Shown here: positions 2,629 to 54,463 of the stretch, in pieces
Position numbering within the stretch: position 1 is the first letter of the stretch
Layout: every line of letters begins with the position of its first letter
DNA from: an uncultured virus (IMG/VR IMGVR_UViG_3300030104_003133)
Lineage: Duplodnaviria; Heunggongvirae; Uroviricota; Caudoviricetes
DNA length: 64,000 bases
Virus record (IMG/VR): IMGVR_UViG_3300030104_003133
Reading direction: 5' to 3' (one strand)
Notes under the pieces: model-generated
Told to the model about the DNA's origin: nothing
The model's database searches: none
Seen by the model: only the letters and a program-made list of their open reading frames with translations
Translations under genes and position numbers: made by a program

Positions 2629-3324
2629 TCATTCTAAAAAACTTTCATCATACATATCTTCCCAATTCATTTTAAATACGTTTAAAATCTCTCTAATTTG
2701 TATTGCTGCTCTTTTAGCGTCAAACATTTCCTCATTAAAATCTTCTATTATATATTGAAGTGACCTTCTATATCTATTATTAGTACCAATTAGTTTTTCT
2801 AATCCTTTCATATCCGCCTCACTAAATTCTCTTAAGAGTTCATCAGGTATAATTCTTTTTAATTCCCTTCTTTTAGTTGCGGGTGTTTGCATACTGAAAC
2901 CATATTGACTTCTTTTGAGTCTTTTAACAGTACCATCCCATGCATTTTGAGCCATTCTATCTAACATTCTTTTATCTCTATCTTGTAAATTATCATACAA
3001 ATAAAACTTACCTTTAGTGTCTACAACTTGAACATTAAACCCGTCTTCTTCAATAGTTTCAGTTACACCATCAATTAAATTTTCATTTCCTACACCAACA
3101 TAATTTTCATGAAGGGTGTAAAGTTTAGTTTCAATTGTATTTATTGAGCGTTGCATATTATCTATTGCGTAATTTCCTCTAGGTCTATCCAATAATTCCT
3201 CTTTTGTTAGCCATATATCATTGAATGATTGTTGTTTTTCACTAGTTGGCCTAGTCCATCTTTGATACCAAGCAAGCAATGTTTTGAACCCAGATGATTT
3301 CTTTAGTATGATATTTTGCCACAC
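2629..3324 (-). CDS. Hypothetical protein with W-tag
   Basis: 231 aa, MWQNIILKK, coupled to the portal stop. Confidence 0.55.
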   Translation of the reverse strand: MWQNIILKKSSGFKTLLAWYQRWTRPTSEKQQSFNDIWLTKEELLDRPRGNYAIDNMQRSINTIETKLYTLHENYVGVGNENLIDGVTETIEEDGFNVQVVDTKGKFYLYDNLQDRDKRMLDRMAQNAWDGTVKRLKRSQYGFSMQTPATKRRELKRIIPDELLREFSEADMKGLEKLIGTNNRYRRSLQYIIEDFNEEMFDAKRAAIQIREILNVFKMNWEDMYDESFLE

Positions 3325-4976
3325 TATCCAACCCTCCTTTCAGTCCTTTTATCCACATTCTGATTACCCGCTTCTTTGGGTAGTCCGGTGAATCTTTGGT
3401 CTGGCCCTACACTCATACTTGGCTTATTTCTAGTTTGTCCCTTTACTTCTGCGGGCTTACCTGCTTCTTCTTTTGATGGTCTAGTACCTGCTTCCATCAT
3501 TTGTCCTAGTTGTGATTGGTCTATGTTTGTACCTGCATAGGGGTCAAGTTCTATTTCTTCTTGTTTACCCTTCTTTCCTTGTTGTATTTCTGGTGGAGGC
3601 TTTTCAAATGTAAACCTGCCTTCATCATCCATATCTACTTCAAACCCTAGATTCTTTATTGACGCAGCAATATTAACTTCGATTTCTCTCTTTCTTAATT
3701 TAGCAATAGCATCCTCTTCTTCCGATGGTGGTAGTTTTAACTGCCAATCTGTAATACCAAATTCTTTTGTTAGGAATGGCAAGACGTATTCGTTGTAAAG
3801 TGTCTGAGCCATCTCTACTGCTCTATTTGTTACAAGTATCTGCATACCCTCATTATTCAATCCACCACTAGCGGAATTGTCAGACATGAATATTTTACTC
3901 ACGCCATAGAATGCTGATATTCTATCTCTTAGGTCATCCTTCACAGAAACGTAATCCATTTCCTTTAGGCTATCCATGAATTTAATCCATTCAATAGAAC
4001 CCTTACCATTTTCTGCTTCAATACCCATAACAGGTATGAAGTGTGGGTCTTGTTCCATCTTTTCTTTGACTCCACGCCAGAAGGATTTCATTGAGTCTAT
4101 ATTTCTAGTCTGTACTGCAAGAAGTCCTCTTGGCATCCTACTCTTAGAATAAGATGAATTGACGTAGTTTTCCATAGCAAGTAATGTAGTGATATGATTC
4201 CATAATGTCAACACAGGGGATAAACCATACAATCTACTAGGGTTATACTTACTGAAATGTAATACTTCTCCCTCAATGTAATATTGTTCCTTACCATTCA
4301 CTCTATTGACATAGTGAACAGGGTACATCATATCACCGCACATTTCACATTGTCCAACAGGGTCTTGTGTTATTTGGTCACGGTGTTTAATACAAGTGAA
4401 ACCACTATTTCCTTTATCCCCATTTTGGTCTGCATAGATGTGCATGGTTACAGGGTCGCCACGATATATTTCCTTTATCTTGTGCATTCTAATTTTACCT
4501 GCATTGTCAATGTAGTATTCTTTGACTAGTATAATGTAAGCATCGTCCATGATATTCAAATCATCTTCTAACTCTTTTAGGACATCAATGAACATCTGCT
4601 CAGACGAATTGACATACTCATCTAAGAATTTGTGAGCATATCTCAATTGCTTCTTATCAGGTTTCTTTAGGTTCATAGAACCACAATCAGCACATTGTTT
4701 TACTGCACTTTGATGTTCATTACCACAGTCACCACACTTTGATGTAAATTTCTCTTCCCATGTATATCCTCTTCTGAATATTTCATTCTTTAACTGCGTT
4801 GTGCAGGTTCTTACAATTACAGAAGACTGAGCAACATGATAAAGTATTGGTGACGTTATCATGTAACTTGTGTCTTTTTCCTGTATTCCGGGGTTGAATA
4901 TCTTCCTATCCTCCGGCTTAGGGGTTCCCCTTCTAAACAAATTAGTAAGGGTAAATCTTCTTCTTTCTTCTACCAT
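3324..4976 (-). CDS. Portal protein with zinc-ribbon insertions
   Basis: HFSKYNP..LYGLSP, MPRGLL, ISAFYGV portal-like motifs; near the terminase; CGDC/CADC and C..H/CEMC inserts. Confidence 0.85.
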   Translation of the reverse strand: MVEERRRFTLTNLFRRGTPKPEDRKIFNPGIQEKDTSYMITSPILYHVAQSSVIVRTCTTQLKNEIFRRGYTWEEKFTSKCGDCGNEHQSAVKQCADCGSMNLKKPDKKQLRYAHKFLDEYVNSSEQMFIDVLKELEDDLNIMDDAYIILVKEYYIDNAGKIRMHKIKEIYRGDPVTMHIYADQNGDKGNSGFTCIKHRDQITQDPVGQCEMCGDMMYPVHYVNRVNGKEQYYIEGEVLHFSKYNPSRLYGLSPVLTLWNHITTLLAMENYVNSSYSKSRMPRGLLAVQTRNIDSMKSFWRGVKEKMEQDPHFIPVMGIEAENGKGSIEWIKFMDSLKEMDYVSVKDDLRDRISAFYGVSKIFMSDNSASGGLNNEGMQILVTNRAVEMAQTLYNEYVLPFLTKEFGITDWQLKLPPSEEEDAIAKLRKREIEVNIAASIKNLGFEVDMDDEGRFTFEKPPPEIQQGKKGKQEEIELDPYAGTNIDQSQLGQMMEAGTRPSKEEAGKPAEVKGQTRNKPSMSVGPDQRFTGLPKEAGNQNVDKRTERRVG

Positions 4977-4978
4977 TT

Positions 4979-6295
4979 TTAGAACTCCATTTTACTGTTC
5001 TGTTCAAGTTTAGAGATACTGTCTATGTCAATATCCCATGCTTTCCAATCAAATCTTGCATTGTCACTATGATTGTAATATTTCATTAGTTTGAATAACT
5101 CGCCTTTTCTATCCTTATACCAGTCTTCTTTCTTATTTTCTTTTTTAATTTTAATTAACTCTAATAAGACCTTAGCGTTGTTTTTCTTTAATTTAAAGTG
5201 AGGCAAACATTTGGTTAATAAATCTGTTATTTCTGCACCAGAATAAAAATTAAGTCTGTTAATTAATCTAGTATCTTGCGGGGATTTCTGGTCTAAATGT
5301 AGCCTTCCCATTCCTAATGATTTATGCATTTCTAACATGAATGCCTTACCTCTATTTCCTGTTGCTACTAAACCTACTCTTGGATTATGATTTTTATCCA
5401 TTGTAATATATCCATCTGAATCAATAAAGGCAGCAGTATAAGCCCATATATTCTTTTTAATCTCATCATTTATTTTATAATAAGCACCGTTAACACTTGT
5501 TATATTTTCATCCTTTGCTAACTTTGCTATTATTCGAGAAGAACTTCTATTTTGTAGTTTCTTAGGTAATTGGTCATGTATCTGTCTAGCAGATATACCC
5601 GGATTATAACAAACAGAATCTAGGATGGCCTTCCTAATTTCATCTTTAGGAGATGTGCTTATAGTAGTTTCCTTTAGTAATGATTTGAATACTTTCTTTT
5701 CATTAGTCATCTGCTTTGTAAGACTAGCATACTCTTTATTGAAAGATATGTCTTTTCTCTCTAAATCTGCTTCCCAATATTTACAAAGGCTATCTACCAT
5801 CTTTCTTCTTTTATCTTCTTCTTTGACTAAATACAATTTATACAATTGTTCTTCATTCAAAGTCATAGCCTGTAATGGAACCCTGTATTTTTTAATCCAA
5901 TGAATACTATCAATACACTTATTCAAGTGGTCACTATATGCATCTATTAAATTGTCAATAGATTTAGTAAATTCAATCTTAGGATTGCCTTTCAAGGTTC
6001 TTCTGTAATCTCTCATTTCTTTTACTATTGAGGGAACACCTCTACCTTTTATTGTATATTTTCTTGGATAACTAAACAAAGAATTCTTTGCTTGTGATAG
6101 ATTAATATCCCTTTCAGAAGCAAACAGTTTGATTAGGTCATCGTCACCCATCAATGGTTGTGATGCAAGCCAATCTGATGCATTTTTAGTTTCATCAATT
6201 ACTGCCTGTAATTCATCCTCGGCTTGACTAGCCTCTTCATCAACCTCATCCAATTTATCAGCAGTTTCCCGCATTTGTTCTGTTAACTTACTCAT
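4979..6295 (-). CDS. Helical + winged-helix + LAGLIDADG-domain protein
   Basis: YTAAFIDSDGYI motif with LPHFKLKK C-terminal pattern; NPGISARQIHDQL wHTH-like segment. Confidence 0.7.
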   Translation of the reverse strand: MSKLTEQMRETADKLDEVDEEASQAEDELQAVIDETKNASDWLASQPLMGDDDLIKLFASERDINLSQAKNSLFSYPRKYTIKGRGVPSIVKEMRDYRRTLKGNPKIEFTKSIDNLIDAYSDHLNKCIDSIHWIKKYRVPLQAMTLNEEQLYKLYLVKEEDKRRKMVDSLCKYWEADLERKDISFNKEYASLTKQMTNEKKVFKSLLKETTISTSPKDEIRKAILDSVCYNPGISARQIHDQLPKKLQNRSSSRIIAKLAKDENITSVNGAYYKINDEIKKNIWAYTAAFIDSDGYITMDKNHNPRVGLVATGNRGKAFMLEMHKSLGMGRLHLDQKSPQDTRLINRLNFYSGAEITDLLTKCLPHFKLKKNNAKVLLELIKIKKENKKEDWYKDRKGELFKLMKYYNHSDNARFDWKAWDIDIDSISKLEQNSKMEF

Positions 6296-22264: not shown

Positions 22265-22516
22265 TTATCTCTCCTCAATCATAACTTTCCAGCGTTTTAG
22301 CCTTCTTTCTAAAGCATCTAATGTTTGTCCTCTTCTACCTACAAATAAACCTGTCATCTTTGGAAATACTATTAATGTAATTGTATTGTTATCTCTATTT
22401 ATTTCCATCCTTTTTATCTTATCGTCTAACCTTGCCTTTTCATAGAAAATTCGCACGATATTTTTTAGGACTTTATCGGCAATAGAATCGTTTTTTACAA
22501 CTTCCTCCCATGTCAT
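22265..22516 (-). CDS. KH-domain RNA-binding protein with W-tag
   Basis: GLFVGRRGQTL GxxG loop; MTWEEVVKN. Confidence 0.7.
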   Translation of the reverse strand: MTWEEVVKNDSIADKVLKNIVRIFYEKARLDDKIKRMEINRDNNTITLIVFPKMTGLFVGRRGQTLDALERRLKRWKVMIEER

Positions 22517-23021
22517 AATTTATCAGACCTTTAAAACTCAAAATTTGGGCCGTCATTTATTTGCCACTTGCGCTTTTTTTTATTTTAAATTAATTCTATT
22601 TCCAGAATAAGGTAGAGTTTTAATCTTTTTTATATTTATTTAATAGTTTTAATTCTTTTTAATTGTATATTGAGATAAAATATTTGTATTCTTTTGTGTA
22701 CGGCGGCGTTTTTATTTATACATCAAATACTGGATTTGAACGTAGTGACCCCTTCTCTATCTATGCCATTATAGGCAAAGCATATTAATGTAGTGTTGGC
22801 AGCACTAAATAATTATACCACAACACAGTAAAACAATATTAATATGTAATAAAAAAAATTCTGCCTCACGGCCATATGGTTGCACATAATGTATAGGAAT
22901 GAGCCATTCCTTCGTTAATACAAGGAATAGGTGAATGGAAGGAATTAGTGTTTACCCGACAAGTTAAACGGCTATTCTGCATACATTTCATTTGGACACT
23001 AAGCGTGTCCTTTCGCAGACT

Positions 23022-23062
23022 ACCATATGGTGTGATGCTTTGTCGAATGAACACCCTATAAT
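23022..23062 (+). promoter_or_regulatory. Putative promoter of cassette A
   Basis: ACCATATGGT-N6-CTTTG...ACACCCTATAA upstream of GGTGA and ATG. Confidence 0.55.
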
Positions 23063-23124
23063 GTGTCTATATGTGCTATTATTGTGTGAGGGGCATTACT
23101 CACACTAAACGAGGTGAAAGAAAT

Positions 23125-23667
23125 ATGGCAGATTACAGTATGGATGATAACGCATGGAACGCAAAGAAAGCAGATATTGACGAATGGTTTGAGGCTAACC
23201 CAGACTTTTCGGCTAACAAGGCAATTACCGATGGACTATTCTCTATCGGTGATTCACAGGTTGAAATGAGGAAGAGATATTGGGCATCAATAGCAGGTGT
23301 CTTCGCAGGTCTTCCTAATTCCCCTATTGGTAGGGGTCGTCAATCTTTGATGGACGTAACTGATAAATCTCATGCAGACACTTACTTGGCTACTCTAGGG
23401 GATGCCTATGGTGTATTGTATGATTCAGCGTATGCAATTCTAAGAACACACGGTAAATCCGGTGGAAACCTATATTCCACTATGGATGATGGCCGAAGTG
23501 CATTCGTAAAGGACATGGTGACTAAGGCTAAGTTATTCATCAATTCCGGATATAACGCAGGTAAATCCCAGAACGACGATAAGAGGTTCTGGGTATCTTT
23601 CGATGATGGTGGTTCAATCGTCGTTGTAGATAATAACGCTTCTATGGGGGTAGAAGAAGAAGAGTGA
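23125..23667 (+). CDS. Hypothetical protein, paralogue of 27247-27753
   Basis: Start MADYS after GAGGTGA; LRTHGK motif; ends VEEEE. Confidence 0.7.
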   Translation: MADYSMDDNAWNAKKADIDEWFEANPDFSANKAITDGLFSIGDSQVEMRKRYWASIAGVFAGLPNSPIGRGRQSLMDVTDKSHADTYLATLGDAYGVLYDSAYAILRTHGKSGGNLYSTMDDGRSAFVKDMVTKAKLFINSGYNAGKSQNDDKRFWVSFDDGGSIVVVDNNASMGVEEEE

Positions 23668-24244
23668 GGCTTAATGCCCCTCACCACCCTTCGGGGTCAT
23701 TTAATCAAAGTATTACCATATGGTTGTCAATAATAGACGGATTGAGCCGGGGTAAATATCATGGGCGAAAGTAGACGCTTTATGACTTACCCCAACGCTG
23801 CCGGGTAAGCCACCCGTAATTCTTTCAGAACGCACTAAGAGTGCTATTACTCTCTGGCTACCATATGGATGTAACTCGTAGAGGCGGAAAATGATTGGAT
23901 AATATAATACGCTAAGTATAAGTGAAGCGGTATTCTCCTGTTCATTTTTTGCTCCACAAGTCAGGTTTACAACCATATGGATTGCTCTTAATGTAGAGAA
24001 GGAGGCATTCTTTCGTTTAAACAAAGAAGGCCGAGTGAACGGTTTTATTGCTTATCCCGTATGCGTCGGCTTGCGCACCGTAACCACTTCGTTTATACTA
24101 AGCGTCATATTGACGCTGCGCAACCATATGGAAATATCTCGCCAAAGGGTATTGTTGCTTAGTGAGCAACTACGATGATATTTCCACATCTGGCACATTA
24201 CATTCGTACTTAGCGTACTGACCATATGGTAATGTACTTTGATA

Positions 24245-24668
24245 GTCTGTTACCAGAATCACTAGATGCCTCATTTTCTACTCCCGATTCTAGTGGCGTC
24301 ACTACTGGACGACTTATACTGATTGTTATATGTGTTTTAATGCGGGCAGATGAGGTCTTACTCTAGGAGAGTGTAATGAAGGTTTTTTGGGCGATATCGT
24401 AACATCACGCCTCCGATAACCTACAACGGGAAATGAATGGATAAAGGGTTCTCTTTCGATTACCTTCAAAGTGTCATGGGTCACTAGTTTATGCCATTGT
24501 TAATGCATAGCCTTTACCCGACCTTACCACTAAACTCATCGCTAAATGAATTGTACTACCTACCGTTTTCTTTGGTCGGCTCGCTGAGTCGCTAAACTCC
24601 GATTAGTGTACCTTACCCCCTAACGAATGGGGTTGTTCAGTCAATCCGGTGTCCCCCGTCGGGGACAA
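24245..24668 (-). ncRNA. Candidate ~420-nt structured non-coding RNA (cassette B)
   Basis: Cassette-type promoter at 24688-24727 (minus); no ORF of 60 aa or more; several hairpins, e.g. TGTCCCC/GGGGACA 24650-24667. Confidence 0.45.
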
Positions 24669-25431
24669 TAATAGAGAAACTATCGTGTTAATATAGGGTT
24701 ATTTTGTCAAAGCAACAACCATATGGAATTGAAACATAGTGGTTTTCTGTGGCTTGGGGGAGTAATACGCTAAGTGTAAACGAAGTGTCGGAGGAAAGTG
24801 ACAGAAAATCAAACCCTAAAAAATAATTTGGTATAATCGTTGTTATTACCATATGGTAATGTCAATAATGTAATTATGATTTCTACCAGTCAGGAAGTGT
24901 GACCACAACCACGTTTCACTTACACTTAGCGTGTATATTGCTGCACACCTCCATATGGTGCGATAGGCGTAAACACTCTTAGTGTTAAGGAAACGTTAGC
25001 CGGGGTTCCATATAATAGAAACTTCGGGTGTTGTAACTTGTTGCTTCTATGTTCATGAGAACCAATCAAGTTAGAATGCTACGCATTCCACTACCATATG
25101 GTAAAAGATTTCTTTGTGAAGGTTCTGGTACGAAGCCTGAGTTTTCGCAATATAAATACACGCTAAGTGGTAACGAAGTGTATGTGGCGCAAACTTACCA
25201 GCAGCGAACAAAGTAATCACTGTAAGGGTTTTACCCGGTCTTACGACCATATGGTTAAGTAACGAAGTTACGTTTTTATGCACTGGGGCTGGTAGAACAA
25301 TAGTGAAACGCTAAGTAAGAGTGAAACGGCATTGTTGTACCGCGACGGTTGCATCAAATCACCACAGGGTCTACGACCATATGGTAGGCTACACTTTGTT
25401 CCGTAGAATGCCCCATTTCTGGGGACTTATA

Positions 25432-25530
25432 TCATTTCATTGGCACTATTCTACATATGCCCGCAATTGGGTCATAATAGTAGCAATCATCATGCCTCCT
25501 ATTACAATGCTCGCAGATTTCATCTTTCAT
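25432..25530 (-). CDS. 32-aa Cys-rich microprotein
   Basis: MKDEICEHCNRRHDDCYYYDPIAGICRIVPMK; ATGA overlap; followed by hairpin 25411-25424. Confidence 0.5.
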   Translation of the reverse strand: MKDEICEHCNRRHDDCYYYDPIAGICRIVPMK

Positions 25531-25688
25531 AATCTCTCCTCCACATAGTTTCTAAATCTCGACGCATTGAAATTAGGATTCGTATTGTGTAACTCTATCA
25601 CCAACCTATTGATTTGATTGTTATCTAATTCTAAGGCTATTGCTATCTCAGCAATCTTGATGAAGTGTCTTCTTTGAAATAAACTCAT
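25527..25688 (-). CDS. Small phage protein
   Basis: MSLFQRRHFIKIA...NPNFNASRF. Confidence 0.55.
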   Translation of the reverse strand: MSLFQRRHFIKIAEIAIALELDNNQINRLVIELHNTNPNFNASRFRNYVEERL

Positions 25689-25780
25689 ACTGCCACCCCC
25701 GCTTTTACTGCACAAGCATAACAAAGGCCAATCTTCTTGTTCTGTGATATTGGCTTACCACATTCGTTGCATGGTTTCAT
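25685..25780 (-). CDS. 31-aa C4 zinc-finger microprotein
   Basis: MKPCNECGKPISQNKKIGLCYACAVKAGVAV; ATGA overlaps at both ends. Confidence 0.6.
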   Translation of the reverse strand: MKPCNECGKPISQNKKIGLCYACAVKAGVAV

Positions 25781-26022
25781 TCTTCCTCCTCCTTAAAATC
25801 TCCATATATTTCATATTCGCTGTTATCGCCATATTCTGTACCAGTAAATATGACTTCAATTCCCTCAAATCCATGACTACATAGTGTGAAGGCAGAATCG
25901 AAGAACCCTACATGTTCATTGTATATCTCGAAAACTTCTTCATTTGTCAATTTTCTTGGTGACTTGATTACCCATTTCCTAGTATCAACCGACCATTCTT
26001 CTACTCTATACTCTATACTCAT
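25777..26022 (-). CDS. Acidic hypothetical protein
   Basis: Coupled ORF in cassette C. Confidence 0.55.
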   Translation of the reverse strand: MSIEYRVEEWSVDTRKWVIKSPRKLTNEEVFEIYNEHVGFFDSAFTLCSHGFEGIEVIFTGTEYGDNSEYEIYGDFKEEEE

Positions 26023-26732
26023 TGCATCACCAAATCAATTGTGTCCTTAGAACATTCATAGTTTGCACTAGATAGTATTTCTGTTGTGCAATCAACGGTA
26101 TGTGTAATCTCAGCATTGGATATTCTCTCAAGTGCTGAAACCATTCTTTGCCTAATGTTTCTCATATCATCAGCAGGGATAATAACAATTGACTTCTCTA
26201 TGTTCTTCCTGTCTGTAATAGATTCTATGTCCTTCCTTATCTCAAAGGTAAGTGAGAAAGCATCATCATTGACTCTTTGAATCTTGGTTGTTAGTTCAAC
26301 ACCATCATCCAAATAAACCATTGATGGGTAAATTGTTGATGTTGTCATTTCACCATCAAAGTTCTCATCGTCCATATATGCGTAAGAGCCGGGTACTGCC
26401 ATCCATTCTGTGTTCGTTGATTCTTCTGTTCTCTTGAAGTATTCAGCAATCCATTCATTGTTAATTAAATCTCTGACGATATCTCTAGCCTTGAATTCAT
26501 AGTTAGTAGTAAAGGCTAATTTATCATTGATTAGAATATCATATGAATTATTTGTCTTTATTATTTCTCTTAGACCGTATTTCTCATCATCGGGTGTACC
26601 ATAGAAATAAGACTCTACTAATGATATACCATCATCATGTAGATAAGATGAAAACTTTCGCATTAAAACAGGCGAATCCATCCATTCCTCGCTTTCAAAC
26701 ATTATTGTCATTGTTCTCTTGTATAGTGTCAT
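26019..26732 (-). CDS. Hypothetical protein
   Basis: 237 aa, cassette C. Confidence 0.6.
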   Translation of the reverse strand: MTLYKRTMTIMFESEEWMDSPVLMRKFSSYLHDDGISLVESYFYGTPDDEKYGLREIIKTNNSYDILINDKLAFTTNYEFKARDIVRDLINNEWIAEYFKRTEESTNTEWMAVPGSYAYMDDENFDGEMTTSTIYPSMVYLDDGVELTTKIQRVNDDAFSLTFEIRKDIESITDRKNIEKSIVIIPADDMRNIRQRMVSALERISNAEITHTVDCTTEILSSANYECSKDTIDLVMQ

Positions 26733-26734
26733 AT

Positions 26735-26926
26735 TTATCTCTCCATTGTTATGTATTCGTTTAGTGCCGTATGTAATTCATTGATTACTTCTTCTAAATC
26801 ATCACCAGATACCCGCAATTTGTTTATTGCTAGTATAAGCGATGAACCAGACTTCATATGCTTAAGTTCAAGCACATATTTAGGCTCATTTATCTGTTGT
26901 ATTGTTGTTGTATTGGTATTATCCAT
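26735..26926 (-). CDS. Small hypothetical protein, first gene of cassette C
   Basis: GGTGA SD; cassette promoter at ~26960-27000. Confidence 0.55.
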   Translation of the reverse strand: MDNTNTTTIQQINEPKYVLELKHMKSGSSLILAINKLRVSGDDLEEVINELHTALNEYITMER

Positions 26927-27246
26927 ATTTGTTTCACCAATATTAGGGGATGATTCGCCCTTATGAGGTTATTGCTGAACAAAGTGCATAACCATATGGT
27001 AAGGCCGTTAAATAGATTTGATTCAAAAATAGACATTGTTAATATCCTGCGCACACTGAAGTTTCTCTCTCCCATAGCCACGCAGGGATGAAAAATCACC
27101 CGTTTTTTTCCTAAGTAACTATTCTGCACCAGAAAAATACCTATTACCATATGGTTTCATACTTTGCTCAGGAACCCCTTATAAGGTCGGATGATATGCT
27201 TCTATTGCCCCAAACGGCAACAAAATTAAGAAAAGGTGAAATAAGA

Positions 27247-27753
27247 ATGGAACAAATAGATTGGGATTCAGTCAAATTTAAGGTAAATGATATGTTAGAT
27301 GCGGATAGCGAAATTAACGCTATTCCATCCGATGTTGTATCTCTAGCAAGAATGTTGCTAGATACTGGTGATAACAACGCTTCAACGCGTGAATCACTTA
27401 CAACATCAATTAGGGGAATGCTAAAGCCATACCCCGGCTACCCTTGGAAGAGGGGAAATCAGGGTTCACTCCCTGCTGCTGCAAGAGCAGTTGTTGATAC
27501 TGCTTGTGAAGAGATTAGGTCTGCTGCACACGCTTTCTTTAGCGGAACACTAACCTACTCTCAGCCATTGCTACGAAAGCATGGTAAAGCCAAAGGCTCG
27601 CCAGTATATGTTGATGCTGACGAATACGCAAACACACTAGCAAAGAAGGCTAGGCAAAACGCAACGGCTCTATTTAAGTCGGGTGAGTGGGACGGAACAT
27701 TAAGCGGTCTATCTGCTTGTTCCGCCTACGAATTTGTGGAGGAAGAGGAATAA
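27247..27753 (+). CDS. Hypothetical protein, paralogue of 23125-23667
   Basis: Start MEQID after GGTGA; LRKHGK motif; ends VEEEE. Confidence 0.7.
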   Translation: MEQIDWDSVKFKVNDMLDADSEINAIPSDVVSLARMLLDTGDNNASTRESLTTSIRGMLKPYPGYPWKRGNQGSLPAAARAVVDTACEEIRSAAHAFFSGTLTYSQPLLRKHGKAKGSPVYVDADEYANTLAKKARQNATALFKSGEWDGTLSGLSACSAYEFVEEEE

Positions 27754-27794
27754 TCCTCTTCACCACTTAATCGCTAGTTTGGTGGCATTCCTGC

Positions 27795-27839
27795 GGGAGA
27801 GGGAGTTTAGTCCTATTTTGGGCTTTATTCCCTCTCCCC
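27795..27839 (+). terminator. GC-rich hairpin closing cassette D
   Basis: GGGAGAGGGA...TCCCTCTCCC. Confidence 0.5.
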
Positions 27840-28523
27840 AATTCTTCTGGTAATTATACGTTCAAAGTGTATAATACCATATGGTTCGGTTTTAACTTAT
27901 TTTAAGCAGTCGCCGGGGAGAGCGTTGCGCGGGGGTTATAAACTCGGAGGCTTGCCTCTAATTAGAAGTCGGCAATTATAATTTAACACCGTTCAAACAC
28001 GCTTTCCGACAAACGGTGTATAAGTCAGTATAACAATCAATGGCCTAATTTGTTATGTAGTTAATTAGGTACTCTGAGATTATAGTACCAATAAGATGCT
28101 CTAATCATTGTTATATGACATATATCATACGGATATGCTTATGATATATCCTATATGATATGATAGTGAGAATTACGAACAGGCAGAACTGCTAAACTCT
28201 TACACACTTCTCGTTTCCAATCTGAGTGAGAATGAGAGGTGGGCAAGAGTTAGTAGGTTTAGGTATAAGAAGTAATGATATATTATATATTTCTATTATT
28301 ATCATTATTCTACTACTATTATTGCCACCACACCCTCCCCTCCCTTCTCTATTATTATTTGAGATGGGGGGGTGGAAATGAGAGAAATGAGAATCACAAA
28401 TAGAAATGACAATATCTCTAGCAGTTTCAGCAGGAGAACTGATAAACTTTCATTTCCACCAATGGAGAGAAACATTGTGGAAACAACTGACCGGGAGAGC
28501 AGGTTAACATTGAAGGTGTTAAA

Positions 28524-29349: not shown

Positions 29350-29436
29350 TGCGAGATTCCCAAGTATGGTCAAAGGGGCCGGACTTAAGATTCGGTGCGT
29401 AGTGCTTCGTGGGTTCAAATCCCACTCTCGCAACCA
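29350..29436 (+). tRNA. tRNA-Leu(TAA), CCA encoded
   Basis: TGCGAGA/TCTCGCA acceptor, CCGGA-CT-TAA-GA-TTCGG anticodon arm, long variable arm, GTGGG-TTCAAAT-CCCAC T arm. Confidence 0.9.
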
Positions 29437-29713: not shown

Positions 29714-29790
29714 GGGCCATTAGTTTAGACAGGTAGAACGCCGGGCTTTTAACCCGGAAGTCGCAGGTTCAAATCCTGCATGGCTCGCCA
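29714..29790 (+). tRNA. tRNA-Lys(TTT), CCA encoded
   Basis: GGGCCAT/ATGGCTC acceptor, CCGGG-CT-TTT-AA-CCCGG, GCAGG-TTCAAAT-CCTGC. Confidence 0.93.
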
Positions 29791-37311: not shown

Positions 37312-38622
37312 ATGTTTGATGATTACGGATGGTGTACTAAGGCTAAGATAGAAATATCTACTGCTGATGACAGTTCAAAGACCTACACTACTAATGTAGA
37401 TGTATATTCTACATATCAGTTGAATTATCATAGTCGTAAGACTGGAACTGAAGGTACTACGGGGCGTTACACAGTAGAATGCTCCTATATTAGAACACAA
37501 AAAGGAGAGCCTTTGATTAAAGGTATTAAAATTGCTTTACAGAATTTTCTAGGATGGGGTAGAAGAAATAGACGATGGGGCGCACCTAATGATTTCAAGG
37601 TAGCCTTCGTATTACCTAACAATAACAATGCTACTTTCATGGTTGAGAAGAAAGAGCCATACTACAAATTGATGAGTCAAAGAGTAACCAAGAAGAATCT
37701 AATGACTGCATTAAGTCGTGCATTGTATAGGTCATGTTTTGAAGAAGATGCTCAGACGCTAACAATCTATCTATTCAGAATGATAATGCTACCTGAGAAT
37801 GTATCTTATGTACTTGAGAACAGAACACCGTTTTGGTTCTTTGATGTAGAAACTAGAGAAAAGGTTGAGGTTAGACTCAACACTCAAATGATTGATAATG
37901 ATAAGGCCGCACTTGAAATATCAGATGGTGTATGGGGGCCAATAAGTGTGAAAGACCTAGATATATTTGTCAATTACTTCTATCATGGACATACTAGAGC
38001 AAAGAAATGGGCATATATGTCACCGAAGAAACTATGGAAAGAATTGATGGGAGAAGAACCATCATCATCACAAGAGAAACTTATGGTTGAGTTCCTATGC
38101 CAAAACAGGACACAAGACATAGTAGAAAATAGAGCAAAGGAGTTAATGAATTCCCTAACTGTAAGATACCCAGATAGAATTCGTCTAGTTGATGTGGGTA
38201 AATATACTGCTATGCTAATTAGAGGTAAGAAGGCTGACTGGATTATTGTAGATTCTACTTACAAGACTCAGATTCAGAAGGTTAAGACGTATGTGTTTAT
38301 TCATGATGATTTACTTCAACCTACTGATGCTGATACAAGGTCGTCATATAGAAGGACTAACAGTGGCTTGTCTTTCATGGGTGGTCAATTAAGAGGGCCG
38401 ATATGCATAGACAACGTTCACAGTAATTCAAGTCTTGGCGACCAATATGCTGCTAGAGGACTAGCATTGCTTAATGATAACATAACAATGAAACTAGTCA
38501 ATACTATTGGTAGATATGTTCCAAAGGAATTGAAAGACGATATAGATAAGGTTTCCAGATTCGATATGCCCTTTGTTGACATAACAGGTAAAGAAAAAGA
38601 TTGGAAGGTGATTATAAATTGA
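37312..38622 (+). CDS. Hypothetical protein with a possible C-terminal E2/UBC-like domain
   Basis: GPICID resembles the E2 G-x-IC-L-D active-site loop; two genes upstream of E1. Confidence 0.4.
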   Translation: MFDDYGWCTKAKIEISTADDSSKTYTTNVDVYSTYQLNYHSRKTGTEGTTGRYTVECSYIRTQKGEPLIKGIKIALQNFLGWGRRNRRWGAPNDFKVAFVLPNNNNATFMVEKKEPYYKLMSQRVTKKNLMTALSRALYRSCFEEDAQTLTIYLFRMIMLPENVSYVLENRTPFWFFDVETREKVEVRLNTQMIDNDKAALEISDGVWGPISVKDLDIFVNYFYHGHTRAKKWAYMSPKKLWKELMGEEPSSSQEKLMVEFLCQNRTQDIVENRAKELMNSLTVRYPDRIRLVDVGKYTAMLIRGKKADWIIVDSTYKTQIQKVKTYVFIHDDLLQPTDADTRSSYRRTNSGLSFMGGQLRGPICIDNVHSNSSLGDQYAARGLALLNDNITMKLVNTIGRYVPKELKDDIDKVSRFDMPFVDITGKEKDWKVIIN

Positions 38623-39554
38623 AATGCATGAATTGTGAATCAACGTCTAATTTTGTAGATGAGTCATTAGGTGAAACTGTATGCTCAGATTGCGGGCTAG
38701 TATTAGTTACCAATATATTTGAGGATAGAGTTTCCCAAGTACCTATCTTGAATGAAGACGGTAGTTCATCTATGAGAGTAGGTGATAGAGGAGCATTAGG
38801 TTCTGTATTCAATAGTAGTGGTTTCTCTGGAAGTTACATAAAGAGATTAGGAAGAACACAATTGAAGTTTAAGGGTAGGCAACAACAGTCATTGAATAGG
38901 GGATTCATTGAATTAAATATGGCGTTGTCCCCTTATCTTCCTAACCACTCACTAAAGGAGAGGGCGCATCATTATTACAAGAAACTGTTTTTCAGCAGGG
39001 TGATGCAGGGATATAACATAGACGTAAGAGCATCAGCAATATGTTTGATAGTGCTTCGTGAAAACGGAATACCGTTGACTATTTCTGAAGTAGCACAGAC
39101 GAATGGTTTGTCCCCTTCAAAGGTTTCAAAGTGTGCTAGAAAGTTAGCAAGGACACTAAATAAACCATACATTCTACATTCAATGCCGATTAAACCTTGG
39201 GTTGATAGAGTGACACATGATATGATTGTCACTAAGTATGGTAATGAAAATCTAAAAAGAAACTTCAAGAAAGATGCAATGGAAGTTGTGGAATATGTTC
39301 ACAATTATGTGACTGCTAGAGATATAGCATTCACTAAAAGTTACATGGCTTCTGCATTGTGGATTACTGTATGTTTGAGAGTGTTTGGTTCTCAGCCAGA
39401 ATTCACTCAACATGACATAGGTAATGCTACTAATTGTACTCCTGTTTCTCTAAGGAATAGGAACAAAGAAACATTCAATATGTTTAATGTGAACAAGAAA
39501 GACTTGGCTCAAATGACTGTCAAGCAATTTATTTCAGGTGTAAGATATGAATAA
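38619..39554 (+). CDS. tfb: Transcription factor B (TFIIB) homologue
   Basis: Zn ribbon CMNC..GETVCSDCGLV and two cyclin-like repeats; TTG start after GGTGA. Confidence 0.85.
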   Translation: MKCMNCESTSNFVDESLGETVCSDCGLVLVTNIFEDRVSQVPILNEDGSSSMRVGDRGALGSVFNSSGFSGSYIKRLGRTQLKFKGRQQQSLNRGFIELNMALSPYLPNHSLKERAHHYYKKLFFSRVMQGYNIDVRASAICLIVLRENGIPLTISEVAQTNGLSPSKVSKCARKLARTLNKPYILHSMPIKPWVDRVTHDMIVTKYGNENLKRNFKKDAMEVVEYVHNYVTARDIAFTKSYMASALWITVCLRVFGSQPEFTQHDIGNATNCTPVSLRNRNKETFNMFNVNKKDLAQMTVKQFISGVRYE

Positions 39555-46797: not shown

Positions 46798-47703
46798 ATG
46801 TTATGGACAGAAAAGTATAGACCGCAGACACTAGAAGAAATCTTAGGACAAGATAAGTTTGTTAGTGATGCGAAACATTGGAAAGAAGGAATGCCTAATC
46901 TTCTTCTCTACGGAGAAGCAGGTGTAGGTAAAACTGCGGCAGCAGGTGTAATAGCAAACTTTGTTTTGGGTGAAGATAAAGAATCAAATTTCTTTGAAAT
47001 CAATGCGTCTGATGATAGACGACTTGAAGTAGTTAGAACTACAATCAAAGAGATTTCTTCAGCCATGAAGATAGGCAATGTACCGCACAAAGTAATCTTA
47101 TTAGACGAAATGGACGGTATGACTCCTGATGCTCAGAATGCATTGAAGAGGCTTATGGAACGTTATAGTTCCAATGTTCGTTTCATCATAACGTGTAACC
47201 ATAGACACAAGATAATCTATCCTTTGCAGTCGAGATGTGCAAACTATGGTTTTACACGGCTCTCGGATGAAGAGATTAAGACGGCATTAGATAGAATACT
47301 TGATTTTCAGGGGATTTCTCATATAGAATCTTCCCAGTTGGAAGAGTTTATAGGCACTCTCAATGGTGATTTAAGACGAGGGATTACCGAATTACAGGCT
47401 TCTGTTTCGAGCAATACCCCGTTATCAATGCAAATAGAAAGAATGCAACAACCTTACAATGAATTGTTAGAACACATTCTAAATGACCAATACGAATTAG
47501 CCCTCAAACAAATGCACAATATGATACATATGTCGGTAGACATGAAAACGATTTGTATAGGAATGCATGATGTTGTAGTTAAGAAAAGTCTGCCAACGCC
47601 TAAGAAGTTCAAGTATCTAAGAGTGATAGGTGAAAGTGAATGGAGAAGCACAAACATGACTCCTAAAGTTTTGGCAGCATGGATGATAGGACAGTTGATT
47701 TAG
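46798..47703 (+). CDS. rfcS: Replication factor C small subunit
   Basis: WTEKYRP, GVGKT, NASD, LDEMD, SRC. Confidence 0.93.
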   Translation: MLWTEKYRPQTLEEILGQDKFVSDAKHWKEGMPNLLLYGEAGVGKTAAAGVIANFVLGEDKESNFFEINASDDRRLEVVRTTIKEISSAMKIGNVPHKVILLDEMDGMTPDAQNALKRLMERYSSNVRFIITCNHRHKIIYPLQSRCANYGFTRLSDEEIKTALDRILDFQGISHIESSQLEEFIGTLNGDLRRGITELQASVSSNTPLSMQIERMQQPYNELLEHILNDQYELALKQMHNMIHMSVDMKTICIGMHDVVVKKSLPTPKKFKYLRVIGESEWRSTNMTPKVLAAWMIGQLI

Positions 47704-51795: not shown

Positions 51796-53466
51796 ATGAT
51801 AATTACTGCAATAGATAATGCGAATAAATTTGTTCTTAGATGGAGAGATGAGAACAATAAAAGATTAGAATCGGAAGTAGGCTATGCAGACTTCAATCCA
51901 TATTTTTACATCTTAGCAAATGAAACAGAACGCTCCGGTGTTAATATCACCGAGTATGTAAACGGTAGAAAGGATTCGTTTAGAATCAATCTTAATTATA
52001 CTGTTGATGGTTCTGTATCTCTTGATGGTAGGGCTTTGAAAAAAGTGACATGGACTCCACCAAGACCCGGATATACTAGAGAACTTCGTAAGCAATGGTC
52101 TGAAACTTTTGAGGCAGACGTACCCTTTCATTATCGGTATGCCATAGATTGTTTAACAAACCTGCCAGAATATAAACTAAGAAAGTTCTATTGGGATTTA
52201 GAGTGGCAACAACGTGGCCCCCATGATGGTGCTATTACTTGTATTTCATACTATGATAATTATTCAAAAGAGTCTAAGGTATATTGGTGGCAACCTGATT
52301 CTATTAATAGAAAAGTGAAAGGACACTCAAAGCCTTTTGATTCTGAAAGAAAGATGTTGTCTGCCTTTGTTGATGATATAATTGACAAAGACCCTGATAT
52401 GTTGATTGCTTGGTTCGGTTCAAAGTTCGACCTGCCTAAGTTAATAGAAAGACTACAAGAGAATGGTATTGACCCAAGAGCAATATCTCCTTGTCATGAT
52501 GTGAAAGGAGTGTATTATTCTGATGGAATTAAACTGAGTAAATCAGTTAAGAACTATACTCCTATCGAGCAACCAGTTAGAGGTAGGCTTATTCTAAATC
52601 TTGACTTGGCGTTTGAAAGACAATGGAATGATGCACAACGAGGAACACTACCTTCTTTAGCATTGGACTATGTATCTGAGAATGTTCTTGGTGAGAAGAA
52701 ACTAGTTAGTGAAAGGTTCCCAGATAAGAACCAATTCTTTTCTAGGGGATGGTTAGAAGATACTCAAAACTATCTTGACTATGCAAAGAAAGATGTTGAT
52801 TTGATTCTAAGAATAGATGAAGAAAACTATACTTCTGAGGCTATACTTTCTCTTCAACGTTTGATTGTTGCTCCTTTTGATGCTTGCTTCTATGCATCAA
52901 ATATGGGTGGTATTTACTTCATGCGTAATGCTACTTGGAAAGCACCGACAGGAGATAAAGAAGGTGAAAGGATTGAATATGAAGGGGCTATGATTTACAA
53001 TCCAGAATCAGAAGGAACAAACGGACTACACTTAGGAGTGGCTGCATTTGATTTTGCAGGTCTATATCCTTCTATGATGATAGCAAGAAATATATCTTGG
53101 GAAACTAAGTCTACTGAACCTACTGAGTTTGGTGTTAATGTTTTGATACCAAGAGATTTCAGTCCTGTTAAGTTTGAGGATTGGAAGTATTATAGAACAG
53201 ATGAATTAGGTCTTCTACCTAAAGCGGTATTAGACTTGAAGAAACTAAGAACAGAATATAAGAAGAGAATGTATATGGCAAAGGAACCTTCTGAATATGC
53301 TAAGTGGAATAACAACCAGTTAGCAGTTAAGAGATTGATGGCCTCCTTTTATGGAGTGGTTGGCTATCAAGGATTTGGTTGGGCTGATGTTGATTTGGCT
53401 GCTAGTATAACTGCTAGTGCTAGAGAAGCAATTAGAGAGGCTGCGTTTAAGGTGATGGAATTATGA
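51796..53466 (+). CDS. polB: Family B DNA polymerase, N-terminal part (exonuclease, motifs A and B)
   Basis: WDLE, FDLP, DFAGLYPS, KRLMASFYG. Confidence 0.92.
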   Translation: MIITAIDNANKFVLRWRDENNKRLESEVGYADFNPYFYILANETERSGVNITEYVNGRKDSFRINLNYTVDGSVSLDGRALKKVTWTPPRPGYTRELRKQWSETFEADVPFHYRYAIDCLTNLPEYKLRKFYWDLEWQQRGPHDGAITCISYYDNYSKESKVYWWQPDSINRKVKGHSKPFDSERKMLSAFVDDIIDKDPDMLIAWFGSKFDLPKLIERLQENGIDPRAISPCHDVKGVYYSDGIKLSKSVKNYTPIEQPVRGRLILNLDLAFERQWNDAQRGTLPSLALDYVSENVLGEKKLVSERFPDKNQFFSRGWLEDTQNYLDYAKKDVDLILRIDEENYTSEAILSLQRLIVAPFDACFYASNMGGIYFMRNATWKAPTGDKEGERIEYEGAMIYNPESEGTNGLHLGVAAFDFAGLYPSMMIARNISWETKSTEPTEFGVNVLIPRDFSPVKFEDWKYYRTDELGLLPKAVLDLKKLRTEYKKRMYMAKEPSEYAKWNNNQLAVKRLMASFYGVVGYQGFGWADVDLAASITASAREAIREAAFKVMEL

Positions 53467-53549
53467 AAAATAGAAGGGCATGTAGATGGTGCGGTGCTAT
53501 ACATCCTTTTGGTTTAGATAGAAGATATAAGTGTGGTGAATGTAAATGA
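53463..53549 (+). CDS. 28-aa C4 zinc-finger microprotein between the PolB halves
   Basis: MKNRRACRWCGAIHPFGLDRRYKCGECK; ATGA overlaps at both ends. Confidence 0.6.
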   Translation: MKNRRACRWCGAIHPFGLDRRYKCGECK

Positions 53550-54463
53550 AGGTGGTGTACGGACATACTGATTCTATCTATGTTCAAATGCCTATGGAGC
53601 AAGCAGAAGCAACTCTTCAATTATTGAATAATCACGTTAGACAGAAGTTTCCTAATCTGCTAGAATTAGATGAGCATCCTGTAACATTAGAGTTTGAGAA
53701 ATACTATCAATCTCTAGGTGTGGGTATGACTAAGAATAGAAACGCAGGTTTGATATCTTGGAAGGATGGTAAATACTTAGAGGAGCCAGAATTTGTAATG
53801 ACTGGTTTTACTGCTAAGAGATTATCAATTACCAAACTAGCAAAGGAAACTCAAATGAGTATTCTAAAGATGTGGGTTGGTCAATTCACCGAGGCAGAAA
53901 TAACAGGGATGCTAAAGAAAGCATATTATGCAGTTCTCGAAGGTAAAGTTCCAGTGGAGTACCTTATTAACAGAAGTAGATTTAGGCCGGAAAGATTGAC
54001 TTACAAATGTAAAAACTGTAAAAAACAATTATCAATACAAGATTGTCTTAATGCCCACAAAGAGGCACAAAGAGATAGTCATGATTCTTGTTGCCCTAAA
54101 TGTGGTCAGCCTCTTGAGGTAGTGACACAAGAGGGTAGAAGACCTAGTATTGGTTCTGGTATTGAGGGTGTTATTTGGAATCACCAAAATGAAGAAAACA
54201 AGATAGATGATTCATATGTATTCCTTAGAGTAGCAGATGATGTTCAAAGAGCAAAATACGTTAATCCAGTAACAGGTGTTAGGAAAAGACCCTCTTACAT
54301 TTCTGCATCAACAATAGAAGAGTTGGAGGAACACAAGGCGGATTTACCGCACTATGCAGAATCTATAATAAAGAAAGCCGAGCCAATTTACAGGGCAATG
54401 GGTTGGAGTCTTGACCCTATCAAACGAGATTCAAAACAAAAGACATTAGATGAATGGTGGTAA
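53546..54463 (+). CDS. polB: Family B DNA polymerase, C-terminal part (motif C, thumb) with Zn insert
   Basis: YGHTDS, LEFEK, CKNC/CPKC, PIP-like QKTLDEWW. Confidence 0.9.
   Translation: MKVVYGHTDSIYVQMPMEQAEATLQLLNNHVRQKFPNLLELDEHPVTLEFEKYYQSLGVGMTKNRNAGLISWKDGKYLEEPEFVMTGFTAKRLSITKLAKETQMSILKMWVGQFTEAEITGMLKKAYYAVLEGKVPVEYLINRSRFRPERLTYKCKNCKKQLSIQDCLNAHKEAQRDSHDSCCPKCGQPLEVVTQEGRRPSIGSGIEGVIWNHQNEENKIDDSYVFLRVADDVQRAKYVNPVTGVRKRPSYISASTIEELEEHKADLPHYAESIIKKAEPIYRAMGWSLDPIKRDSKQKTLDEWW

Follow-up and report, generated by a model that had tools for sequence, protein, structure and literature searches.

What does a viral cassette encode when it has a promoter at its head and no protein gene behind it? 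Cassette B poses this question. It is a 505-bp module (24222-24726) in an array of modules set off by the 8-bp palindrome CCATATGG, and it lies in a 64,000-nucleotide stretch of DNA (the window) from the uncultured virus IMGVR_UViG_3300030104_003133, a member of the Caudoviricetes. The initial annotation, made from the letters of this DNA, proposed that 24245-24700 specifies a structured RNA of about 420 nt and that this RNA represents a new class of viral non-coding RNA (ncRNA). Our analysis supports a structured ncRNA from the minus strand of a promoter-bearing, protein-less module, with a predicted start about its GC hairpin. The new class is not borne out for the main part of the RNA, whose first 235 nt match the known family manA over its full length. 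We conclude that cassette B is very likely a protein-less module of an archaeal-type marine virus that makes a stand-alone manA-family RNA, and that this RNA is a divergent variant of manA rather than a new class.

The Rfam manA model (RF01745) matches the minus strand, and only that strand, at 24433-24667 with 48.3 bits, and the match covers all 192 model positions (1-192). Its E-value is 2.3e-10 when 5.7 kb is searched and 2.2e-11 when 551 nt is searched. In an Rfam search of 22500-28200 at E-values up to 10, manA was the only match with E below 0.5. The domain opens with the P1 hairpin at 24650-24667, which is the 7-bp GC hairpin noticed earlier and reads UGUCCCC-GACG-GGGGACA on the minus strand. 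Behind it lies the conserved core, UGACUGAACAA-CCCC..GGGG-GUAAGGUAC (24608-24643, minus strand), which agrees with the upper-case letters of the Rfam consensus, those conserved most strongly; UGRCUGAAYAA, CCCC..GGGG and GUAAGG are all present in the window copy.

Relatives were gathered through a neighbouring protein, through the boundary motif in IMG/VR, and through a degenerate pattern of the core in IMG/VR and metagenomes. cmscan found manA in 20 of the 20 loci collected. Twenty-three columns are invariant across 19 sequences, which include contigs above the Rfam cut-off, and nearly all of these columns fall in the core. Our own covariance model, R1, scores 280.7 bits at 24426-24672, its sole match in the window, and has 56 matches in 100 sources. 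A search of five virus records with RF01745 gave no match; the sensitivity of that search was low, and the five records included L041, where cmscan reports manA with 43.7 bits.

Does the domain fold as the family does? RNAalifold, run on nine array-virus sequences, returned 62 pairs, 36 of them with compensatory changes, and the helices follow the order of the Rfam model. One falsely nested helix was swapped for the family pseudoknot before pairs were counted. Over the nine sequences and 13 helices, 94.2% of 554 cells are paired, compared with 35-50% when partners are slid by 1-3 columns. Both sides have changed at 34 of the 62 manA pairs, and none of 500 shuffles reaches the observed value on any of five pairing measures. 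On a plain MAFFT alignment of 19 family members RNAalifold found only 14 pairs, because the variable hairpins were misaligned, and that alignment was replaced by the nine-sequence group alignment and a model-based one.

The initial annotation had named four pairings by eye. All four are present in the sequence, and they differ in conservation. CCCC/GGGG is the manA P2a helix; its five pairs hold in all nine sequences, one of them changing from C-G to A-U. CACTAGA/TCTAGTG (24289-24295 with 24260-24266), which belongs to a second domain discussed below, is 100% paired in six sequences with two compensatory pairs. ACTCT/AGAGT is 86% paired with zero compensatory changes. TGAAGGT/ACCTTCA did not hold up: GAAGG pairs instead with CCUUU to form the last manA hairpin, where four of five pairs show compensatory changes. 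The two repeated octamers that had been remarked on are also there, GGTAAGGT at 24610-24617 and 24521-24528 and GAGTTTAG at 24592-24599 and 24530-24537.

The family pseudoknot is formed by GGAU (24644-24647, minus strand) and AUCC (24439-24442, minus strand), the latter directly after the last manA hairpin (24443-24467). In a figure legend of the 2010 family description, as far as its accessible text goes, this element is marked "pseudoknot?" (PMC2864571). On the R1 alignment, which is independent of the nine-sequence alignment, we assessed complementarity between the five bases that precede UGRCUGAA and those that follow the last hairpin. Of 39 distinct rows, 33 form at least four contiguous pairs, with 13 types of 5′ strand represented; among control cross-combinations of different types, 28% of 1294 do so. 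The pairs in relatives include GUAG:CUAC, GUAU:AUAC, GAUAG:CUAUC, GUGAG:CUCAC, CAUAG:CUAUG and AAGUG:CACUU. The pair counts also show which strand is the RNA. There are 80 G-U cells and four A-C cells; the share of cells that pair is 94.2% for the minus strand and 80.5% for the plus strand; and stable UACG and GUAA loops can be read only on the minus strand. The excess of G-U over A-C and these loops therefore identify the minus strand as the RNA sense.

The cassette promoter of the initial annotation reappears as a layout shared with the protein cassettes at 23023 and 27147. In the minus-strand direction, the head of cassette B runs from the palindrome through a GGTTGTT..CTTTG..AATAACC hairpin to TATATT and TATTG, with the GC hairpin directly after. 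TATATT (24690-24695) is a TATA-like box and the predicted promoter, and such a hexamer lies 25-29 nt 5′ of the first RNA hairpin in five manA-module lineages. The initiator-like TATTG (24666-24670) lies 29 nt past the start of TATATT, and the predicted transcript start is near 24666. The first manA hairpin directly follows the initiator-like motif in all six array lineages. The two protein modules likewise have a TATA-like hexamer (at 23057 and 27180), TATTG 27 nt on, and a 5′ hairpin, and the motif (C)TATTATTG directly 5′ of a 5′ hairpin is common to cassette B and the 198-aa gene module. The protein modules continue with a GGTGA ribosome-binding site and ATG; cassette B has no such site. The archaeal TATA box is centred about 26-27 nt 5′ of the transcript start. 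The spacing of the elements in cassette B fits archaeal promoters, and TATATT presumably functions as an archaeal TATA box. A scan for sigma-70 promoters found 13 sites where 18.8 were expected, and a terminator scan found 5 where 3.7 were expected, so neither gave a signal.

Several observations weigh against a stand-alone manA-family RNA. The window copy, at 48.3 bits, falls below the RF01745 gathering score of 55.2, and as a result a default Rfam scan shows no match at this locus. The gathering score is a curation threshold, not a structural feature, and the window copy lies within a continuum of scores that crosses it: array-bearing contigs score 58.8 (L146, above the cut-off), 52.9, 50.5, 49.3, 43.7, 39.9 and 32 bits, and marine contigs without the array score 43.9-64.3. 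A copy that is below the cut-off yet inside this continuum is best classed as a divergent manA variant, not as a canonical member. For annotation, this means that the Rfam cut-off overlooks such manA copies. The evidence for the fold also has weak points. The manA fold was predicted from the same alignment on which it was tested, which is circular, and five of the nine rows are near-identical close kin, so the independent lineages are few. The minimum free energy gives z-scores of -0.67 (minus strand) and +0.36 (plus strand), that is, no stability beyond that of shuffled sequence.

The RNA libraries cut both ways. Parts of 23000-25500 occur in 20 sequencing runs, all marine, of which six are RNA libraries. 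Four RNA runs were aligned to the region as assembled contigs, from which strand, ends and levels are unreliable. In X15 a contig covers manA at 24412-24609 at depth 327, with the 198-aa gene contig at 21.7; in X16, from the same study, the corresponding figures are 24420-24609, 494 and 57.3. X17, from another study, has a contig at 24517-24658 whose depth equals that of the gene (7.6 and 7.7), and the adapter letters that follow 24658 in this contig are a weak hint at a transcript start. X18 has no contig over manA; its contigs lie only on the 198-aa gene, 26323-26473 and 27545-27782. In none of the four runs do RNA contigs cover 24230-24411 or the small modules, and DNA carry-over could be the source of the contigs that are seen. 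The manA part is thus present in RNA libraries of two studies, and its depth in one of them hints that the manA RNA is abundant.

Is the manA domain the leader of a gene, or a gene in its own right? The family was first listed as a probable cis-regulatory riboswitch candidate, common in 5′ untranslated regions (UTRs), in the available text of Weinberg et al. (2010, PMC2864571), a description repeated in the accessible part of PMC9964418. By this precedent the manA domain would be a cis-acting, riboswitch-like leader, which here would control read-through into the modules that follow. The end of cassette B would permit this. No run of at least five T occurs on the minus strand from 24726 down to 23000, and read-through into the next modules is possible since no terminator signal is found at the module end. 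Two kinds of relatives also place an ORF behind manA. L146 has a 112-aa ORF, without a Pfam family, 180 nt after manA (ATG at 1884, with the ribosome-binding site AAGAGG 7 nt before it), and in two non-array contigs (L173 and L202) an ORF starts 15-17 nt after manA. These points are to be added to those above. In no lineage other than L146 (1414-2262) does manA precede a gene within one module, and the upstream boundary there is a degenerate ACATATGG.

The behaviour of the module argues the other way. In L003 and L150 the module order is as in the window. In L141 one module is absent and another has moved and flipped, and in L004 and L160 cassette B and modules c5 and c7 are inverted, the 198-aa gene has moved, and an unrelated module stands behind cassette B. 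Order and orientation differ in L004, L160, L141, L167 and L005, and all mapped breakpoints are at palindromes. Cassette B therefore has no constant downstream partner, even among close relatives, and is independent of its neighbours. The manA module has no ORF in five of six array lineages (the W type, that is, the lineage of the window; the L132 type; L167; L153; and L041), and the gene-less module of L153 is closed by a hairpin followed by T6. Across 21 loci, 11 have no ORF of at least 40 aa starting within 200 nt downstream of manA; in nine of these the nearest ORF is at 335-698 nt, and the other two are short contigs with none. Most of the non-array contigs have no ORF within 300 nt after manA. 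Furthermore, the pairing TGAAGGT/ACCTTCA, a possible switch, is not kept in L167, whose tail has no complement to its own version of TGAAGGT.

The window thus lacks what would define a leader. There is no conserved ORF behind manA to give it the 5′-UTR position that goes with its cis-regulatory type in Rfam, the next module varies among relatives, and no gene, terminator or hairpin sequestering a ribosome-binding site lies behind the manA domain. The literature found, insofar as its text was available, names no manA ligand. The published description as a 5′-UTR element or riboswitch does not fit the window, and we consider a leader function here unlikely. A stand-alone RNA gene, which probably acts in trans, is the reading that follows from an inverted module, varied neighbours and five gene-less lineages out of six.

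What lies behind the manA domain bears on the claim of a new RNA class. A linker of two hairpins (24390-24430, minus strand) comes first; the second hairpin (24390-24411) has a UACG loop. In L004 this hairpin is replaced by an unrelated perfect hairpin with a GUAA loop, and in L003 a G-C pair of its stem has become G-U. Conservation is lowest in the linker: identity to L004 is 70% there, compared with 94.5% for manA and 83% for the promoter. Next comes a second structured domain (24230-24372, minus strand) with crossing helices, 24343-24357/24269-24286 and 24289-24295/24260-24266. Its fold, too, is conserved: its 41 pairs are 93.4% paired, as against 31-43% with slid partners, and 10 pairs have compensatory changes. 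Rfam offers no match for it, even with E-values up to 10 admitted. The domain occurs in three lineages, after manA in the window lineage and in L167, and without manA in L005. Other lineages have a different tail after manA (L132, and L146 with L153) or none (L041). A model of the second domain, R2, had 10 matches in 38 sources, all from the lineages used to build it, so no wider family emerged. In L005 a 219-bp module (2807-3025) has the cassette B promoter and the 3′ domain without manA and the linker, and the junction coincides with the first bases of the manA P1 hairpin. It follows that manA was either inserted into an older small RNA module or deleted from it, and that the RNA is modular.

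A search of cassette B against Rfam therefore has a divided outcome: the 5′ part belongs to the known family manA, and the 3′ domain stands without a match. Were the whole 420-nt RNA a class unrelated to known families, a score below the gathering score and an unmatched 3′ domain would be expected; a full-length manA match with an E-value of 2e-11, relatives scoring up to 58.8-64.3 bits, and manA helices and a pseudoknot shared with compensatory changes would not. We find this reading very improbable for the RNA as a whole and refuted for the 5′ domain. There is likewise no credible match of cassette B to tRNA, tmRNA, RNase P, the signal recognition particle RNA or other Rfam families. ARAGORN finds only two tRNAs in the window, 29350-29436 (Leu-UAA) and 29714-29790 (Lys-UUU), just right of the array.

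Could cassette B encode a very small protein instead? As first noted, no ORF of at least 60 aa overlaps 24245-24700; the longest are 52 aa (24326-24484, minus strand) and 46 aa (24226-24366, plus strand), and a frameshift disrupts the 52-aa ORF in L003, a relative with 97% identity. On either strand, small ORFs were considered and rejected, as indels break them in relatives. The best candidate is a 34-aa ORF (24170-24274, minus strand). It has a Shine-Dalgarno-like GGGAG 6 nt before the ATG, its first 17 codons are in frame in W, L003, L004, L160 and L141, and in L005 a 3-nt deletion leaves the in-frame start stretch one codon shorter. But this ORF spans the CCATATGG boundary, so its tail differs with the neighbouring module, and among close relatives it is 20, 24, 34 or 58 aa long. 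Moreover, a 2-nt insertion abolishes its ATG in L005, and its non-synonymous changes (AGG to GGG, and CTA GTG to CTG ATG) correspond to the 3′ sides of compensatory RNA pairs. With the other ORFs of cassette B disrupted by indels, and none conserved, a protein product is highly improbable.

That cassette B is a DNA-level recombination or replication element, or a decayed gene remnant, with an incidental RNA, is scarcely credible, since, although the region is one of palindromes and hairpins where the strand bias turns and the module ends are recombination breakpoints, its interior is more conserved than the promoter and linker, its 62 pairs kept by compensatory change and its bias of G-U over A-C are the signature of RNA and not of duplex DNA, and the homologous RNA family occurs in unrelated genomic settings.

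Which virus carries this RNA? The window encodes a portal, a terminase, a ribonucleotide reductase, an ATP-dependent DNA ligase and polymerase B. For the portal (3324-4976), all 10 records matched in the phage collection are archaeal tailed viruses, and polymerase B finds its best matches in haloarchaeal viruses (27% identity). A TFIIB-type zinc ribbon (38601-39554), an RFC-like clamp loader (46798-47703) and a family B polymerase in two ORFs (51796-53466 and 53546-54463) are also present. Philosof et al. describe, in the accessible text of PMC5434244, magroviruses of Marine Group II archaea with the same gene set, in which the polymerase genes are split and the structural block contains a homing endonuclease. 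Between portal and terminase, the window has a 438-aa ORF (4979-6295) with an HNH endonuclease-like C-terminal part (phrog_5046, E 6e-6), which recalls the nuclease inserted in the magrovirus structural block (PMC5434244, same text). The best matches of the terminase are Bacteroides phages, which makes the archaeal assignment likely rather than proven. The carrier is thus likely an archaeal, magrovirus-like virus, with gene similarity as the sole basis, a further point on the side of caution. A literature search, in which "mana" also matches other words, found no paper placing manA in archaeal viruses.

What might the RNA do? We propose that a TATA-type promoter on the minus strand drives an ncRNA of about 440 nt that starts at about 24666. 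Its first 235 nt would fold into the pseudoknotted, multi-helix manA structure, followed by the variable two-hairpin linker and then by the lineage-specific pseudoknotted second domain, which would end at the boundary hairpin. The RNA would act on its own, in trans, and not as a leader. By homology, it may be a self-assembling particle or scaffold made during infection. According to the available text of a 2026 preprint, five manA RNAs shorter than 200 nt assemble in vitro into octamers, decamers or an icosahedral-like cage of 60 subunits; these oligomers are closed and pentamer-based, and their contacts are kissing loops and a loop-receptor interaction of peripheral hairpins (bioRxiv 10.64898/2026.07.01.735769). 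The window RNA may assemble in the same way as those other manA RNAs. Two points count against this part of the proposal: the evidence for self-assembly is in vitro, concerns other family members and comes from one preprint, and in 18 rows no consistently complementary loop pair predicts oligomer contacts.

The manA family has been an orphan since 2010, classed in the accessible text of its description (PMC2864571) as a probable riboswitch of 5′ UTRs in phages and bacteria. A gene-less manA unit with a predicted promoter, which moves and flips independently and is covered in RNA libraries, argues against the leader model. If the host is indeed archaeal, manA extends across domains, and part of the unassigned marine manA would come from archaeal viruses. 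A bolder and still rather doubtful extension is that manA RNAs in general are not leaders, but stand-alone RNAs of bacterial viruses (cyanophages) and archaeal (magrovirus-like) viruses that assemble into RNA-only particles or scaffolds in the infected cell. If this were true, manA would be a cross-domain viral RNA "structural gene", the in-vitro cages would gain a natural setting, and the manA gene of an archaeal virus would ride in a flip-and-shuffle module together with a second RNA domain.

The array in which cassette B travels has a defined architecture. The palindrome CCATATGG occurs 16 times in the window (22872-27884), where 0.99 occurrences are expected, and none of 100 shuffles reaches 16. 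These sites divide 22872-27884 into 15 modules. Four of them are large, namely those with the 198-aa gene, the 200-aa gene and a 1.6-kb minus-strand gene block, and cassette B; the other 11 span 106-163 bp. The boundaries of cassette B are the palindromes at 24719-24726 (upstream) and 24222-24229 (downstream), and the whole module is inverted from site to site in L004 and L160. Its upstream boundary hairpin (24697-24720, minus strand), 5′ of the promoter, reads GGTTGTT-(GCTTTGACAA)-AATAACC with a CTTTG loop. The downstream one (24228-24254, minus strand), GGUAA-(..CAAAG..)-UUACC with a 7-pair stem, is its mirror image. Large modules have such mirror-image end hairpins on both sides, with a GGT-stem, a CTTTG-containing loop and a stem-ACC; examples are 23029-23055, 24228-24254, 24697-24720, 26973-26998 and 27153-27176. 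The stem letters vary by module and complementarity is retained. Stems of at least six pairs are found at 112 of 291 module ends, as against 255 of 1455 shuffled controls, and at 50 of 96 distinct module ends with CTTTG. Viruses that are 70-97% identical have the same modules in another order and orientation, with breakpoints at the palindromes, a pattern suggestive of cut-and-rejoin or of site-specific exchange at a symmetric site. For the CCATATGG-bounded array no recombinase was identified, the literature on CCATATGG was unrelated by title among the matches listed, and blastn of 22800-25500 against 50,697 phage records gave zero matches.

A 4-bp hairpin, NNAC-GCTWA-GTNN, whose outer pairs covary, precedes AAnnGAARYG in most of the small modules and occurs in both orientations. 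In the window, hairpins with GCTWA loops lie, in either orientation, at 22998-23006, 23909-23917, 24097-24105, 24208-24216, 24767-24775, 24924-24932, 25160-25168 and 25308-25316, and hairpins with TCTTA loops at 23740-23752 and 24973-24985. The NNAC-GCTWA-GTNN hairpin is present in 55 of 84 distinct small modules from 35 array loci, and it has no Rfam match. The opposite strand of its loop reads UUAGC, the same letters as in two UUAGCG loops of the array-virus manA RNA. Pairing between the small-module GCUAA loops and the manA UUAGCG loops was considered and rejected because the small-module loops vary (GCUAA, GCUUA, UCUUA) and the manA loops are constant, so there is no covariation. Module c1 (23716-23868; relatives in L005, L131 and L167) has a nearly invariant core, GAGCCGGGGTAAATATCATGGGCGA...TTTATGACTTACCCC, with divergent flanks, and its fold is a nested stem. 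In L134, module c5 (24719-24856) has two compensatory changes in its long stem. Modules c1 and c5 may be small RNA genes of their own.

How does the RNA of cassette B compare with what is known of manA? It shares with the described motif the 5′ hairpin, the conserved UGRCUGAAYAA strand, the CCCC/GGGG hairpin followed by GUAAGG, the helix closing a three-hairpin junction, the variable hairpin, the last hairpin, and the pseudoknot that joins the strand after the first hairpin to the strand after the last. The marine habitat and the viral carrier are alike as well. Compared with the model, the variable hairpin of the window copy is larger (49 nt inserted versus 28), and two of its junction hairpins have UUAGCG loops. 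Descriptions of manA, in the text available, place it in T4-like cyanophages, two gamma-proteobacteria and unassigned marine DNA. Unlike these, the window RNA has its own predicted promoter, no gene behind it and a fused second structured domain, and its carrier looks like an archaeal virus. New relative to the text available, then, are the stand-alone, promoter-driven and gene-less setting, the second domain, the shufflable module and the probable archaeal host.

GOLLD and ROOL are large orphan phage-borne structured RNAs that reportedly form RNA-only multimers. Like them, the cassette B RNA appears to be stand-alone, highly structured and virus-borne, and its family has a reported tendency to self-assemble. 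Those RNAs are longer, however, and there is no sequence or covariance-model similarity to them, only manA having matched the region credibly.

The closest parallel for the cassette as a whole is found in the PeSL cassettes of T4-type phages, as described in the accessible text of Arbiol et al. (2010, PMC2839356). These, too, are small units, each with a promoter at its head and stem-loop bounds, which cluster in a hyperplastic region, are mostly non-essential, and are reshuffled among close relatives through repeated boundary elements. Cassette B has a predicted promoter and stem-loop bounds, and it is reshuffled at those elements between close relatives. In contrast to PeSL units, the modules of the array are bounded by an exact 8-bp palindrome flanked by mirror-image CTTTG-loop hairpins, and they are inverted in addition to being inserted, deleted and replaced. 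Their predicted promoters are of an archaeal-looking TATA type, and several modules, including cassette B, carry RNA instead of protein genes.

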